A stretch of DNA of 64,000 nucleotides from Escherichia coli. Lineage in GTDB: Bacteria > Pseudomonadota > Gammaproteobacteria > Enterobacterales > Enterobacteriaceae. Positions within the stretch are counted from its first letter, which is position 1. The number at the start of each line of letters is the position of its first letter. Position numbers and translations under genes: made by a program. The stretch lies in NCBI RefSeq assembly GCF_001677475.2, contig NZ_CP015229.1, one strand, 5' to 3'. This document shows positions 22,476 to 62,577 of the stretch, one piece after another. The notes below the pieces were generated by a model. That model worked only from the letters and a program-made list of their open reading frames with translations. It made no database searches and was not told the DNA's origin.

Positions 22476-22551
22476 GGCCCCTTAGCTCAGTGGTTAGAGC
22501 AGGCGACTCATAATCGCTTGGTCGCTGGTTCAAGTCCAGCAGGGGCCACCA
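22476..22551 (+). tRNA. ileX: tRNA-Ile (anticodon CAU, lysidine-modified)
   Basis: 76-nt sequence ggccccttagctcagtggttagagcaggcgactCATaatcgc...gggccacca folds as a canonical cloverleaf with CAT anticodon and encoded CCA; its 3' 46 nt are repeated at 36093-36141. Confidence 0.92.
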
Positions 22552-37863: not shown

Positions 37864-37958
37864 TTGCCGGATGCGGCGTACCCTACACACCCCGTAGGCC
37901 TGATAAGATGCGCCAGCATCGCATCAGGCATTGTGCTCCAACCGCCGGATGCGGCATA
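37864..37958. repeat. BIME (tandem REP elements)
   Basis: gccggatgcggcgtaccc... and ...ccgccggatgcggcatacc repeats between yqjI and aer. Confidence 0.65.
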
Positions 37959-51909: not shown

Positions 51910-53479
<1,570 letters not shown>

Positions 53480-58481: not shown

Positions 58482-59468
58482 ATGATACGTTTCGCTGTGA
58501 TTGGCACGAACTGGATCACTCGTCAGTTCGTCGAGGCCGCCCATGAGAGCGGTAAATACAAGTTAACCGCCGTTTATTCCCGCAGCCTTGAACAGGCTCA
58601 GCACTTCGCCAATGATTTTTCTGTCGAGCATCTGTTTACATCGCTGGAAGCGATGACGGAAAGCGATGCCATTGACGCGGTGTATATTGCCAGCCCGAAT
58701 GCCCTGCACTTTTCCCAGACACAACTTTTCCTTAGCCATAAAATTCATGTGATTTGCGAGAAGCCGCTGGCGTCGAATCTGGCGGAAGTGGATGCCGCCA
58801 TTGCCTGCGCACGAGAAAATCAGGTGGTGCTGTTTGAGGCATTTAAAACCGCCAGCCTGCCGAACTTTCATCTGTTACGCCAGGTGCTGCCGAAAGTCGG
58901 CAAATTGCGTAAAGTCTTTTTCAACTACTGCCAGTATTCCTCGCGGTATCAGCGTTATCTGGACGGCGAGAATCCCAACACCTTTAACCCGGCGTTCTCT
59001 AACGGTTCAATCATGGATATCGGCTTTTACTGCCTGGCGTCGGCGGTGGCGTTATTTGGTGAACCGAAAAGCGTGCAGGCAACCGCCAGTTTGCTGGCAA
59101 GCGGCGTGGATGCCCACGGCGTGGTAGTGATGGATTACGGTGATTTCAGCGTTACGTTGCAGCACTCAAAGGTCAGCGATTCTGTGCTGGCAAGCGAGAT
59201 TCAAGGCGAAGCGGGATCGCTGGTGATTGAAAAACTTTCTGAATGCCAGAAAGTCTGCTTTGTGCCACGCGGCAGCCAGATGCAGGATCTCACCCAACCG
59301 CAGCATATTAATACCATGCTCTACGAAGCAGAGCTGTTCGCTACCCTGGTGGATGAGCATCTGGTGGATCATCCAGGGCTGGCGGTCAGTCGCATCACCG
59401 CCAAACTGCTGACCGAGATTCGCCGCCAGACTGGGGTGATTTTTCCGGCAGATAGCGTAAAACTATAA
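58482..59468 (+). CDS. ygjR: Gfo/Idh/MocA-family oxidoreductase
   Basis: Recognised N-terminus MIRFAVIGTNWITRQF (NAD-binding Rossmann start) at 58482; 328 aa. Confidence 0.82.
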   Translation: MIRFAVIGTNWITRQFVEAAHESGKYKLTAVYSRSLEQAQHFANDFSVEHLFTSLEAMTESDAIDAVYIASPNALHFSQTQLFLSHKIHVICEKPLASNLAEVDAAIACARENQVVLFEAFKTASLPNFHLLRQVLPKVGKLRKVFFNYCQYSSRYQRYLDGENPNTFNPAFSNGSIMDIGFYCLASAVALFGEPKSVQATASLLASGVDAHGVVVMDYGDFSVTLQHSKVSDSVLASEIQGEAGSLVIEKLSECQKVCFVPRGSQMQDLTQPQHINTMLYEAELFATLVDEHLVDHPGLAVSRITAKLLTEIRRQTGVIFPADSVKL

Positions 59469-59519
59469 TTGCCAAAGTAAAACAGTGTAAAAGGTATGTA
59501 ACAGACCATTGACTGGCTG

Positions 59520-59751
59520 AATGGTCTGTCATACTTTGTTACCTGCAAAGGGGAGTAACTTCATTGCCGGTCGATCGTCATTACGATGTGTGAAAAACCA
59601 CATCCGGTCACCGGGCAACCCGAAAGGAATACGCAGACGTATTCCTTTTTTGTTGTAAGTGAGACCTTGCCGGAAGGCGAGGTCTATGCATAAAAAGCAG
59701 CGGCTGACGTCTTCCGACGTTGGCCGTTTTTTTTATGTGTAAGGAACTTCT
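59520..59751 (+). ncRNA. alx 5' leader: pH-responsive element / yybP-ykoY-type Mn2+ riboswitch
   Basis: Long structured untranslated leader before alx with a terminator-like hairpin and U-tract (gcggctgacgtcttccgacgttggccgtttttttt) just before the ATG; assignment from established knowledge of the alx locus. Boundaries approximate. Confidence 0.55.
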
Positions 59752-60717
59752 ATGAATACTGTCGGCACGCCGTTGCTATGGGGCGGATTCGCTGTTGTTG
59801 TCGCCATTATGCTGGCTATCGACCTGTTGTTGCAGGGGCGTCGTGGGGCACATGCCATGACCATGAAACAGGCTGCGGCCTGGTCGCTGGTCTGGGTGAC
59901 GCTGTCGTTACTGTTTAACGCCGCTTTCTGGTGGTATCTGGTGCAGACACAGGGGCGCGAAGTCGCTGACCCGCAGGCGCTGGCCTTCCTCACGGGTTAT
60001 CTGATTGAGAAATCGCTGGCGGTCGATAACGTCTTCGTCTGGTTAATGTTGTTCAGCTATTTCTCTGTTCCGGCGGCATTACAGCGCCGCGTGCTGGTGT
60101 ATGGCGTGCTCGGGGCGATTGTTCTGCGTACCGTCATGATCTTCACCGGTAGCTGGCTGATTTCGCAGTTCGACTGGATCCTGTATATCTTCGGTGCCTT
60201 CCTGCTGTTTACCGGCGTGAAAATGGCGCTGGCCCATGAAGATGAATCAGGCATTGGCGACAAGCCGCTGGTGCGTTGGCTGCGCGGTCATTTGCGCATG
60301 ACCGACACCATAGACAACGAGCATTTCTTTGTGCGTAAGAATGGCTTGCTGTATGCCACGCCGCTGATGCTGGTGCTGATTCTGGTGGAATTGAGCGACG
60401 TGATTTTCGCCGTGGATAGCATCCCGGCTATCTTCGCCGTGACCACTGACCCGTTCATTGTGCTGACCTCAAACCTGTTTGCGATCCTCGGCCTGCGTGC
60501 GATGTATTTCCTGCTGGCGGGCGTAGCAGAGCGTTTCTCGATGCTCAAATATGGCCTGGCGGTGATTCTGGTGTTTATCGGTATCAAGATGCTGATTGTC
60601 GACTTCTACCATATTCCGATCGCCGTTTCGCTGGGCGTGGTGTTTGGCATTCTGGTGATGACATTTATTATCAACGCCTGGGTGAATTATCGGCATGATA
60701 AGCAGCGGGGAGAATGA
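59752..60717 (+). CDS. alx: TerC-family membrane protein (putative Mn2+ exporter)
   Basis: 321-aa polytopic membrane ORF. Confidence 0.88.
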
Positions 60718-60815
60718 TTCGCTGTATATTAAGCCATTACTAGAGATAACTCATTCCAGACAAAGGTGAGCTATTAATTATGTAATCGGCTTATAGCTCT
60801 TTACAAAAAGACCGC

Positions 60816-61070
60816 ACTGGTGTTGGTGGCGTCAAAATCGCCGAAGCGTTCCCTGGAGGCCGGGGCGACGCGCATGGATGCGCGGCGAGGGCGCATCTTA
60901 CAGGGACGTTCCCTTGCGCCCGACCCGGTAGCCGCAAGGGATAAGCTGAGGGAACCGCGCAGCGGCGATTTTGTTCGCCAGAGCCTGGGGGTGCAGGGGG
61001 CGGCGGCGATTGGCCGCCCCCTGCGCGCTCCCTGCGCCAGTGACTTTATATGGCATAGCACATTAAAGGA
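60816..61070. repeat. GC-rich palindromic intergenic element
   Basis: Dense imperfect palindromes (e.g. gggggcggcggcgattggccgccccc, agggacgttccct) between alx and sstT; both overlapping ORFs in the track look non-coding. Confidence 0.4.
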
Positions 61071-61332
61071 GCGCAACCGTTCTCATATTCCAAATAGTTT
61101 TGCCCATATGTTATCTAATCAGCCTTAGTAGCCAGTCCTTCCCTCTGTTTATGTCAAATAAATGTAACCATTAAGTTGCAAAATATGACCTCTCTTTAAA
61201 ATCCAGCATTTTTCGCTTCCCGAAGCTGTAACTTTCCTTATACTCGACCTTGCAAACACTTTGTTACATCCTGAAAGATGCGTCGACAGAACGCACCAGG
61301 GATGTGCGACAACACAATGAAAGGATCGAAAA

Positions 61333-62577
61333 ATGACTACGCAACGTTCACCGGGGCTATTCCGGCGTCTGGCTCATGGCAGCCTGGTAAAACAAATCCT
61401 GGTCGGCCTTGTTCTGGGGATTCTTCTGGCATGGATCTCAAAACCCGCGGCGGAAGCTGTTGGTCTGTTAGGTACTTTGTTCGTCGGCGCACTGAAAGCC
61501 GTTGCCCCCATCCTGGTGTTGATGCTGGTGATGGCATCTATTGCTAACCACCAGCACGGGCAGAAAACCAATATCCGCCCTATTTTGTTCCTCTATCTGC
61601 TGGGTACCTTCTCTGCTGCTCTGGCCGCAGTCGTTTTCAGCTTCGCCTTCCCTTCTACCCTGCACTTGTCCAGTAGCGCGGGTGATATTTCGCCGCCGTC
61701 AGGCATTGTCGAAGTGATGCGCGGGCTGGTAATGAGCATGGTTTCCAACCCCATCGACGCGCTGCTGAAAGGTAACTACATCGGGATCCTGGTGTGGGCA
61801 ATTGGCCTCGGTTTCGCACTGCGTCACGGTAACGAGACCACCAAAAACCTGGTCAACGATATGTCGAATGCCGTCACCTTTATGGTGAAACTGGTCATTC
61901 GCTTCGCACCGATCGGTATTTTTGGGCTGGTATCTTCTACCCTGGCAACCACCGGTTTCTCCACACTGTGGGGCTACGCGCAACTGTTGGTCGTGCTGGT
62001 TGGCTGTATGTTACTGGTGGCGCTGGTGGTTAACCCATTGCTGGTGTGGTGGAAAATTCGTCGTAACCCGTTCCCGCTGGTGCTGCTGTGCCTGCGCGAA
62101 AGCGGCGTGTACTCCTTCTTCACCCGCAGCTCTGCGGCGAACATTCCGGTGAATATGGCGCTGTGCGAAAAGCTGAATCTGGATCGCGATACCTATTCCG
62201 TTTCTATTCCGCTGGGAGCCACCATCAATATGGCGGGCGCAGCAATCACCATTACGGTGTTGACGCTTGCTGCGGTTAATACGCTGGGTATTCCGGTCGA
62301 TCTGCCTACGGCGCTGCTGTTGAGCGTAGTGGCTTCCCTGTGTGCCTGTGGTGCCTCCGGCGTGGCGGGGGGGTCTCTGCTGCTGATCCCACTGGCCTGT
62401 AATATGTTCGGTATTTCGAACGATATCGCCATGCAGGTGGTTGCCGTCGGCTTTATCATCGGCGTATTGCAGGACTCTTGCGAAACCGCGCTGAACTCTT
62501 CAACTGACGTGCTATTCACTGCGGCAGCTTGCCAGGCAGAAGACGATCGTCTGGCAAATAGCGCCCTGCGTAATTAA
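61333..62577 (+). CDS. sstT: Serine/threonine:Na+ symporter
   Basis: 414-aa polytopic membrane [24 protein letters not shown]... Confidence 0.9.

Follow-up and report, generated by a model that had tools for sequence, protein, structure and literature searches.

A TRIP1d copy of the enterobacterial TRIP1/RRS repeat family in the alx-sstT intergenic region of Escherichia coli

The GC-rich repeat between alx and sstT

The window analysed here is a stretch of 64,000 nucleotides of the Escherichia coli contig NZ_CP015229.1, and its subject is a GC-rich repeat in the 615-bp intergenic region between alx (open reading frame (ORF) 59752-60717) and sstT (ORF 61333-62577), whose names were confirmed through the RefSeq annotation of a 99.7% identical locus. 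The repeat occupies positions 60814-61077 on the + strand (264 bp), is co-oriented with alx and sstT, starts 96 bp past the alx stop codon and ends 255 bp before the sstT ATG. A first-pass annotation of the same DNA had placed a GC-rich, palindrome-dense block at 60816-61070; the block is real, and these limits lie within a few bases of those found here. In alignments and blastn searches, other copies are homologous over ~60811 to 61077 and resemble the window more weakly as far left as 60794.

The composition of the block was also described correctly in that annotation. Its G+C content is 65.9%, against 51.9% for the window, which makes it the top 264-bp stretch of the 64 kb (99.98th percentile); runs of four or more G or C occur at 15 per kb, against 3.7 per kb in the window, and 13 inverted-repeat pairs, nested and imperfect, were found within it. 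Structure prediction, one of the checks proposed at the time, was run on three forms of the repeat, each against 200 dinucleotide-preserving shuffles. As single-stranded DNA (ssDNA) the repeat has a minimum free energy (MFE) of -86.7 kcal/mol (z = -7.19), as + strand RNA one of -144.1 kcal/mol (z = -5.10; ensemble energy -147.3 kcal/mol, with two branched domains), and as - strand RNA one of -130.5 kcal/mol (z = -5.01); in each of the three runs, 0 of the 200 shuffles was as stable as the repeat.

Judged by its sequence and position, this element corresponds to TRIP1d of Li et al. 2024 (Genes 15:236, PMC10888264), and is thus already known. These authors described TRIP1d as a new type of 264 bp, at the same distances from alx and sstT and always forward, present in 1565 of 6725 genomes (23%) and 89% identical to TRIP1a; TRIP1 repeats were, by their account, first described by Rudd 1999, and they list copA-ybaP as another TRIP1 locus and report TRIP1a/1d rearrangements (PMC10888264). 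Their TRIP1 criteria are a GC content of 62-65%, a 'double-Y' structure and an ensemble energy of about -145 kcal/mol (PMC10888264). Length, position, forward orientation, a GC content of ~65% and the energy (-145 versus -147.3 kcal/mol) agree between that paper and our analysis, which adds the orientation to replication, compensatory changes, deletion variants, an inverted copy in E. whittamii and a resemblance to the TwoAYGGAY RNA motif. In blastn comparisons with K-12, the window repeat is 88.0% identical over 267 nt to TRIP1a (our sequence L009) and 88.1% identical to TRIP1c (L003), and the K-12 TRIP1a and TRIP1c cores are identical to each other at 218 of 220 positions.

TRIP1a and TRIP1c are the replication risk sequences (RRS) RRS-lysO and RRS-dusC (Pham et al. 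2023 NAR PMC10287960; Pham et al. 2024 PMC10592627; a further source on RRS is the preprint of Kusi-Appauh et al. 2026, 10.64898/2026.06.16.732529). An RRS is defined as a ~222-bp GC-rich repeat, present at lysO and at dusC, with the G-quadruplex (G4) sequence GGGGGTGCAGGGGGCGGCGG on one strand only (PMC10592627). TRIP1d has in common with both a homologous core, an identical G4 20-mer and the same hairpin architecture; it differs by 21 core substitutions and in being strain-variable, whereas the canonical RRS are reported to be near-universal. The parts of the repeat and its spacers are as follows.

60814..61077, + strand: TRIP1d repeat, full published extent (coordinates of Li et al. 2024, PMC10888264; blastn; alignments A2/A3)
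60823..61042, + strand: core homologous to the ~222-bp RRS; 199 of 220 positions (90.5%) identical to K-12 TRIP1a, and the same to TRIP1c
60833..60973, + strand: closed multi-branch ('double-Y') domain; 16-nt closing stem (60833-60848/60958-60973) around two GGA-loop hairpins
60866..60887, + strand: hairpin 1, loop ATGGAT (inverted repeat I8); stem with four compensatory pair changes relative to TRIP1a/TRIP1c
60889..60921, + strand: hairpin 2 (GGGCGCA...TGCGCCC), apical TTACAGGGACGTT; seen in the folds, with compensatory pair 60895/60915
60987..61006, + strand: G-quadruplex-forming 20-mer GGGGGTGCAGGGGGCGGCGG; exact match to the experimentally characterised RRS G4 (Pham et al. 2024)
60993..61024, no strand assigned: perfect 12-bp GC hairpin GCAGGGGGCGGC / GCCGCCCCCTGC (arms 60993-61004/61013-61024) with an 8-nt loop; inverted repeat I3, 100% complementary
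61065..61077, + strand: conserved 3' terminus AAAGGAGCGCAAC (alignments A2/A3; flank comparison in Enterobacter and Kluyvera)
60847-60862 and 60907-60922, + strand: direct repeats CGTTCCCT, 60 bp apart (direct repeat D1)
61015..61036, + strand: tandem 11-nt direct repeat CGCCCCCTGCG / CGCTCCCTGCG (direct repeat D4)
60718..60813, no strand assigned: left spacer, unalignable with the K-12 alx-sstT spacer (alignment A1)
61078..61150, no strand assigned: right spacer of the TRIP1d haplotype; near-identity with K-12 runs from ~61150 to the sstT ATG

The 'double-Y' domain is supported by inverted repeat I1, by the MFE folds and by an RNAalifold consensus with covariation. In the stem of hairpin 1 the compensatory pairs relative to TRIP1a/TRIP1c are 60867/60886, 60868/60885, 60870/60883 and 60872/60881, and the apical pair of hairpin 2 shows A-U to G-C covariation in the Enterobacter copies. 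Within the window the 20-mer GGGGGTGCAGGGGGCGGCGG is matched once, on the + strand (60987-61006), and does not occur on the - strand; the G4Hunter score of this site, 1.84, is the second highest in the window. In other copies, two C-G pairs of the perfect GC hairpin at 60993..61024 are replaced by A-U through compensatory change; this hairpin shares sequence with the G4 motif and is expected to compete with the quadruplex. The terminus AAAGGAGCGCAAC forms a sharp right end of the repeat in the copies of all five genera examined. It resembles a Shine-Dalgarno sequence, and in the four full-length TRIP1a/TRIP1c copies aligned an ATG follows 2-3 nt downstream; TRIP1d and the partial TRIP1b have no ATG there, and no conserved small ORF is evident because the flanks differ.

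The element had been described as unlike the canonical REP sequences elsewhere in the window and as possibly belonging to a different repeat family, and both statements hold. A motif search without a profile found no REP-type motif (GCCGGATG/CATCCGGC) within 60814-61077, on which ground identity with REP/BIME elements was rejected, and other parts of the window do contain REP-like GCCGGATG/CATCCGGC motifs (those at 37866, 37944, 55081, 55818 and 55897 among them). Like REP/BIME elements, TRIP1d is GC-rich, imperfectly palindromic, intergenic, multi-copy and mosaic; unlike them it has a unit of ~264 bp rather than ~35 bp, only 1-5 copies per E. coli genome, and no RAYT transposase association that we could see. 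A further point of comparison is the pilE G4 of Neisseria gonorrhoeae, which the RRS authors name as the sole other programmed gap-forming G4. Both elements form a G-quadruplex and are proposed to cause replication-associated gaps or nicks; the pilE G4, however, is unrelated in sequence, serves pilin antigenic variation and does not lie within a large hairpin module.

Copies, haplotypes and selection on the fold

A genome-wide search for copies had also been proposed, together with the expectation that a single-copy sequence without conservation would count against the idea of a repeat or a structured element. Of 5426 complete E. coli genomes searched by megablast, 5425 carry the TRIP1 family, at a median of 3 places each and never at more than 5, so that the sequence is both multi-copy and conserved. 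In K-12 the TRIP1 loci are dusC-yohP (2229150-2229388, - strand), aqpZ-lysO and putP-efeU, the last an internally deleted form. TRIP1 places on plasmid records numbered 10 of ~16000; one of the sequences compared, L008 (NZ_CP194962.1, the 'plasmid' pEC16-AU-EG1, 243 kb; 204484-204541), carries the chromosomal efeUOB-putP-putA region including a partial TRIP1b.

To look beyond E. coli, contigs were scanned with the pattern GGGGGTGCAGGGGGNGGNGG, which was too loose and gave many chance matches in high-GC genomes; the true homologues among the matches listed belong to Kluyvera, Enterobacter sp. ENT03, Pseudocitrobacter faecalis, E. whittamii and Escherichia sp. MOD1-EC7003. The species range is incomplete, Salmonella, Klebsiella and Citrobacter having not been sampled. 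Kluyvera genomes carry from at least 3 to at least 7 TRIP1 loci each (L022-L027, L096-L101, L114-L120), often at contig ends, and Enterobacter sp. ENT03 carries at least 7 copies (L050-L056). The Kluyvera and ENT03 copies have in common lineage-specific 5' extensions of ~70 nt and tandem sub-repeats, with a 3' extension in Kluyvera, and TRIP1 has there the character of a mosaic repeat that proliferates, unlike in E. coli, where its copies are few.

Selection on the fold was assessed in alignment A3, which comprises 28 sequences from Escherichia, Kluyvera, Enterobacter, Pseudocitrobacter and a metagenome-assembled genome. The RNAalifold consensus of this alignment contains 68 pairs, 14 of which show compensatory double changes. 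Of the 21 differences between the cores of TRIP1d and TRIP1a, 10 combine into five compensatory pairs; hairpin 1 has four of these and hairpin 2 the fifth. Both hairpin loops keep their GGA throughout the 28 copies (at least 90% conservation over the alignment), while the stems covary. The two strands differ: the consensus fold of the G-rich strand has an energy of -93.7 kcal/mol with 68 pairs, against -69.5 kcal/mol with 55 pairs for the C-rich strand. Among the pairs with a Watson-Crick majority, 13 sites have G.T variants and 2 have A.C variants (binomial p = 0.007). The compensatory changes, the better consensus fold of the G-rich strand and the excess of G.T over A.C demonstrate, at the level of sequence comparison, that selection acts on the folded G-rich strand of TRIP1. 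The signal fits ssDNA of an exposed template and a + strand RNA equally well and cannot separate the two.

At the alx-sstT locus itself, several arrangements occur. In K-12 the spacer is 398 bp long and lacks TRIP1d, an unrelated sequence replacing the equivalent of 60718-~61150, and the ~180 bp directly upstream of sstT are nonetheless near-identical. The K-12 spacer (L002:5547-5944) holds a different palindromic repeat with GC tracts, of the form CCCTCTCCC...GGGAGAGGG...GGGTGAGGG...CCCTCACCC. A search with the flanks only (60718-60813 plus 61078-61160) matched 1668 of 5426 complete E. coli genomes (31%). The flanks aligned as two pieces in 49 of the 50 records listed, most of them ~439-443 bp apart, indicating a repeat in between, and the remaining record had a right-flank match only; no empty site with window-type flanks was seen among these 50. 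Carriers of TRIP1d include BL21-AI, ATCC 8739, IAI39 and E24377A, and the O157:H7 records listed have a best match that is only about 90% identical, probably another TRIP1 copy.

Two of the listed records have a shorter span between the flanks (372-381 bp), and they correspond to the deletion variants L132 and L133. In their alignments, a 60-bp deletion lies exactly between the CGTTCCCT repeats at 60847 and 60907 and removes both GGA hairpins, and an 11-bp deletion between the tandem repeats at 61015-61036 is found in L133 and in Escherichia sp. MOD1-EC7003 (L089). Both deletions have the appearance of classic slippage products. The G4 20-mer is retained in every variant examined.

Beyond E. 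coli, Escherichia sp. MOD1-EC7003 (L089) carries TRIP1d in the same orientation, in a locus 94% identical over 3.1 kb. The alx-sstT region of E. whittamii (L131:5193-5460), in turn, holds a copy of the TRIP1a/c type in the opposite orientation and between yet other spacers, so that the window and L089 are opposite in orientation to L131. At least three unrelated, repeat-bearing haplotypes of this spacer thus exist in Escherichia, namely those of K-12, the window and E. whittamii. Both orientations relative to the same flanking genes were seen at three loci, with the outer spacers also differing: besides alx-sstT, these are aqpZ-lysO (L009/L005 versus L006) and dusC-yohP (L003/L004 versus L007). 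For TRIP1c, 2952 forward and 2789 reverse copies have been reported (PMC10888264). Because the repeat occurs in either orientation with different spacers at all three loci, the alx-sstT spacer is a site of recurrent cassette replacement, and neither a clean insertion nor a simple inversion accounts for it. Inversion in place through recombination between the terminal arms was rejected for aqpZ-lysO and alx-sstT, since the outer spacers differ as well. Mobile insertion in the manner of a miniature inverted-repeat transposable element, with target duplication, was not supported either: no empty site was seen among the 50 listed records, and what K-12 and E. whittamii have at this place is not an "empty" site but spacer sequence that cannot be aligned. 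The flanks of the Enterobacter and Kluyvera copies are longer lineage-specific extensions of the repeat and not duplications.

Resemblance to the TwoAYGGAY RNA motif

At gathering thresholds, a scan of the whole window against Rfam gave no match for the repeat. Below threshold, the TwoAYGGAY motif (RF01731, clan CL00106) aligns over model positions 1-168 to 60821-60986 on the + strand with 33.1 bits (E = 0.0084), the gathering threshold being 43 bits. The same end-to-end, sub-threshold match, at the same place and on the same strand, was obtained for every TRIP1 copy tested (33.1, 30.9, 30.6 and 29.6 bits). The loop of hairpin 1, AUGGAU, fits the AYGGAY pattern, the apical ACAGGGAC of hairpin 2 has R instead of Y, and there is a long P1 stem; TRIP1 loops are identical to the loops ACAUGGAUGU and UACAGGGACGUA of the TwoAYGGAY seed. 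The original seeds of the motif are multi-copy in Psychromonas ingrahamii.

A covariance model (CM) built from the TRIP1 core (R1) matches the window at 60825-60979 with 173.6 bits, and it meets the Rfam model on a sequence of Pseudocitrobacter faecalis. There, a diverged paralogue (L033:2183-2332, + strand) stands head-to-head with a TRIP1 copy (L033:1868-2135, - strand) at a distance of ~50 nt; its centre passes the Rfam TwoAYGGAY threshold with 49.2 bits, and the TRIP1-core CM matches it over its full length with 40.9 bits (E = 3e-8). Kluyvera intermedia has the same head-to-head pair (L118:6314-6466, - strand, and TRIP1 at L118:6525-6739, + strand, ~50-60 nt apart), with 40.2 bits to the Rfam model and 36 bits to the TRIP1-core CM. 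The paralogues of both species have the same architecture as TRIP1, including the G-rich terminal hairpin.

TwoAYGGAY (RF01731; Weinberg et al. 2010, PMC2864571) and TRIP1 therefore have in common a closing stem around two hairpins with A-Y/R-GGA-Y loops, the loops ACAUGGAUGU and UACAGGGACGU, a multi-copy occurrence in gamma-proteobacterial genomes, and models that cross-match the same Pseudocitrobacter sequence. TRIP1 differs in its score (30-33 bits against 43), in its second loop (AGGGAC), and in its additional module of G4 and GC hairpin and its conserved 3' tail; moreover, the annotation of TwoAYGGAY is that of an RNA, whereas work on TRIP1/RRS has dealt with DNA alone. By the Rfam criterion TRIP1d is not a member of TwoAYGGAY, and what it shows is a resemblance. 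That the TRIP1/RRS core is a member or a sister of the TwoAYGGAY class, with selection keeping both the G-rich strand's fold and a pair of invariant GGA loops, is a tentative idea to which we give rather little weight. If the GGA loops were a protein-recognition module, the biology of RRS would not be purely a G4 effect; such a module could be one for transcript binding of the CsrA type, or for a protein that acts on the ssDNA hairpins of an exposed template strand. The part of the results covered in a full-text literature search for TwoAYGGAY contained no paper tying the motif to TRIP1 or RRS.

Orientation to replication and competing explanations

The position syntenic to the alx-sstT repeat in K-12 is 3.2395 Mb, on the same replichore as the dusC copy at 2.23 Mb. 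With dif at ~1.59 Mb and oriC at ~3.92 Mb in K-12, TRIP1d would be located ~1.65 Mb from dif in K-12 coordinates, on the left replichore and away from the Ter domain's border. The dusC copy of K-12 matches the + strand query on its - strand, and the polarity of TRIP1d is therefore opposite. Across the window as a whole the GC skew is -0.025, with values below zero in 6 of 8 bins; the + strand has 8 Chi sites and the - strand 17, and for FtsK-orienting polar sequences (KOPS) the counts are 0 and 2. Owing to these skews and site counts, and to the polarity opposite to RRS-dusC on the same replichore, the G4 strand of TRIP1d (+) is very probably the leading-strand template, the reverse of the canonical RRS. 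In both canonical RRS the G4 strand is the lagging-strand template (PMC10592627), and the two copies flank the Ter macrodomain as an inverted pair, each ~650 kb from dif (Pham et al. 2023, 2024), as compared with the leading-strand template and ~1.65 Mb for TRIP1d.

Taken together, we regard the alx-sstT repeat, with a probability of about 0.7, as a strain-variable copy of the enterobacterial TRIP1/RRS family, that is, as a foldable DNA element which at this site would be at most a weaker trigger of gaps. Its identity, its family membership, its intact G4 and the selection on its fold are established by the comparisons above, and its activity at alx-sstT is suggested by analogy with the studied copies. 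Upon unwinding of the duplex, the G-rich strand would fold into the closed multi-branch domain with its two hairpins, the GC hairpin and the G-quadruplex. At lysO and dusC, the fold on the lagging-strand template blocks the synthesis of Okazaki fragments and leads to post-replication gaps bound by RecA and SSB (PMC10287960, PMC10592627). In TRIP1d, the G4 strand would lie on the leading-strand template and the weaker C-rich strand would face the lagging-strand polymerase. According to the RRS literature, an inverted RRS gives no RecA/SSB peak in vivo, and in vitro it gives lagging-strand gaps in ~66% of replisome encounters (~328 nt versus ~698 nt), which are ascribed to the weaker structure of the C-strand. 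[quoted passage not shown] What is certain is that it gives other TRIP1 copies ~260 bp of homologous sequence with which to recombine ectopically, and that it is prone to slippage; should transcription of alx run on into it, the repeat would also place a very stable structure in the 3' region of alx.

Several points speak against this reading. The gap-trigger activity is extrapolated from TRIP1a and TRIP1c, from which TRIP1d differs at 21 of 220 core positions; the orientation presupposes that the replichore arrangement of K-12 has been kept, and the Chi and KOPS counts are small. A model centred on the G4 leaves unexplained the two conserved GGA loops with their covarying stems in 28 copies. 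Moreover, natural TRIP1a and TRIP1c copies occur in both orientations, and orientation may matter less than the RRS papers assume.

A possible but somewhat doubtful explanation is that the repeat is a passenger, a cassette of a mosaic family in a tolerant spacer, without function here and merely a substrate for recombination and slippage. This would agree with a window-type spacer in only 31% of complete genomes and an unrelated, repeat-containing spacer in K-12, with the three haplotypes at alx-sstT (K-12, window and inverted E. whittamii) and the same pattern at aqpZ-lysO, with the at least 7 copies and lineage-specific extensions of the mosaic kind in the Kluyvera/Enterobacter genomes sampled, and with the toleration of internal deletions, even of the loss of both hairpins. 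It sits poorly with the purifying and compensatory selection on the fold of TRIP1d itself, including the five compensatory pairs relative to TRIP1a, and with the G4 20-mer being kept in every variant. RRS copies placed at ectopic sites are active according to the RRS literature, which makes a wholly inert copy unlikely; in addition, no empty window-type site was found among the 50 listed records, and neither a target-site duplication nor a transposase is associated with the repeat.

The strand-specific conservation would also be expected if the repeat were transcribed as a + strand RNA of the TwoAYGGAY class, by read-through from alx or as part of the sstT 5' untranslated region, and if its GGA hairpins bound a protein such as CsrA, affecting the alx or sstT mRNA or titrating the protein. 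The consensus of CsrA ligands selected in vitro (SELEX) is RUACARGGAUGU, and the TRIP1 loops resemble CsrA binding sites. The full-length matches in every copy tested, the Pseudocitrobacter sequence on which both models meet, the loops identical to those of the seed, the GGA kept in both loops above covarying stems, and the asymmetry of G.U and A.C, which favours the + strand, all speak for this reading; furthermore, TRIP1d points the same way as alx and sstT, and the stretch from alx to the repeat showed no intrinsic terminator. Nevertheless, the TwoAYGGAY scores stay below the gathering threshold, TRIP1a and TRIP1b of K-12 are antisense to both of their neighbours and both orientations are common, and GGA triplets are not enriched (6 observed versus 6.2 expected). 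Folded ssDNA tolerates G.T wobbles as well, so that the asymmetry fits the DNA model equally. A literature search for CsrA crosslinking and immunoprecipitation (CLIP) data at TRIP1 loci found nothing relevant, and a crude scan, which is weak evidence, detected neither a + strand promoter for the repeat nor an intrinsic terminator between alx and sstT. On balance, we consider such an RNA function unlikely.

The first-pass annotation had also suggested a structured regulatory RNA for sstT, a suggestion that found no support. The repeat does lie upstream of sstT on the sense strand and is strongly structured, as would be expected of a dedicated cis-regulatory leader or riboswitch. However, it stops 255 bp short of the ATG, and K-12 keeps sstT and the near-identical ~180 bp upstream of it without a TRIP1 repeat in that spacer; window-type spacers are missing from ~69% of the complete genomes, of which K-12 is the one that was aligned. 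The same sequence is found beside the unrelated genes of aqpZ-lysO, dusC-yohP and putP-efeU in either orientation, and no riboswitch or leader family of Rfam matches at threshold. A dedicated sstT leader is accordingly very improbable. Still less credence, close to none, can be given to a small protein-coding gene. A 102-aa ORF (60820-61128, + strand) and a 91-aa ORF (60801-61076, - strand) are both present in the window copy, and PGAP calls a 48-aa hypothetical protein under the repeat in the RefSeq records of some strains. Yet both frames contain 1-4 stop codons in other copies, including the closest TRIP1d relative, L089; the 11-bp internal deletion of some copies is not a multiple of three, and the substitutions are compensatory for pairing rather than synonymous. 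The coding hypothesis was rejected since the frames are not conserved between copies.

A few other features of the window were recorded. A 513-aa ORF (51938-53479, + strand) between ygjK-like and fadH-like ORFs contains internal direct repeats of ~363 bp with GGGGCGGGGTG motifs and the strongest G4Hunter site of the window (53261-53285, - strand, -2.24); it matches no Pfam family, is annotated as 'hypothetical protein' and is found in 252 of 5426 complete E. coli genomes, in none of them at 99% identity or above. In the alx leader (59300-59751), Rfam matched neither the yybP-ykoY Mn riboswitch nor the pH-responsive alx leader, even at E <= 1; a leader of this kind has been described for E. coli alx. 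A Sib RNA lies at 2103-2252 on the - strand (Rfam SIB_RNA, 144.8 bits); Sib RNAs are equivalent to the QUAD repeats, another intergenic repeat family of Rudd's 1999 survey. A tRNA is located at 22476-22548 on the + strand.

As a finding in itself, TRIP1d matters little, being a published and named repeat. Its interest lies in its being a natural RRS variant with an intact G4 in the "wrong" orientation and far from the Ter border, in a family that is being actively investigated as the first programmed elements for post-replication gaps in bacteria, and in the conserved GGA-loop hairpins that the G4 model leaves unexplained. Roughly one in three E. coli strains carries it, the laboratory strains BL21 and ATCC 8739 among them, and K-12 lacks it. 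A comparison of strains with and without TRIP1d, which needs no engineering, could test the effects of orientation and position on gaps and on chromosome topology, and could likewise test rearrangements by extra copies and a G4-independent role of the GGA-loop hairpins.

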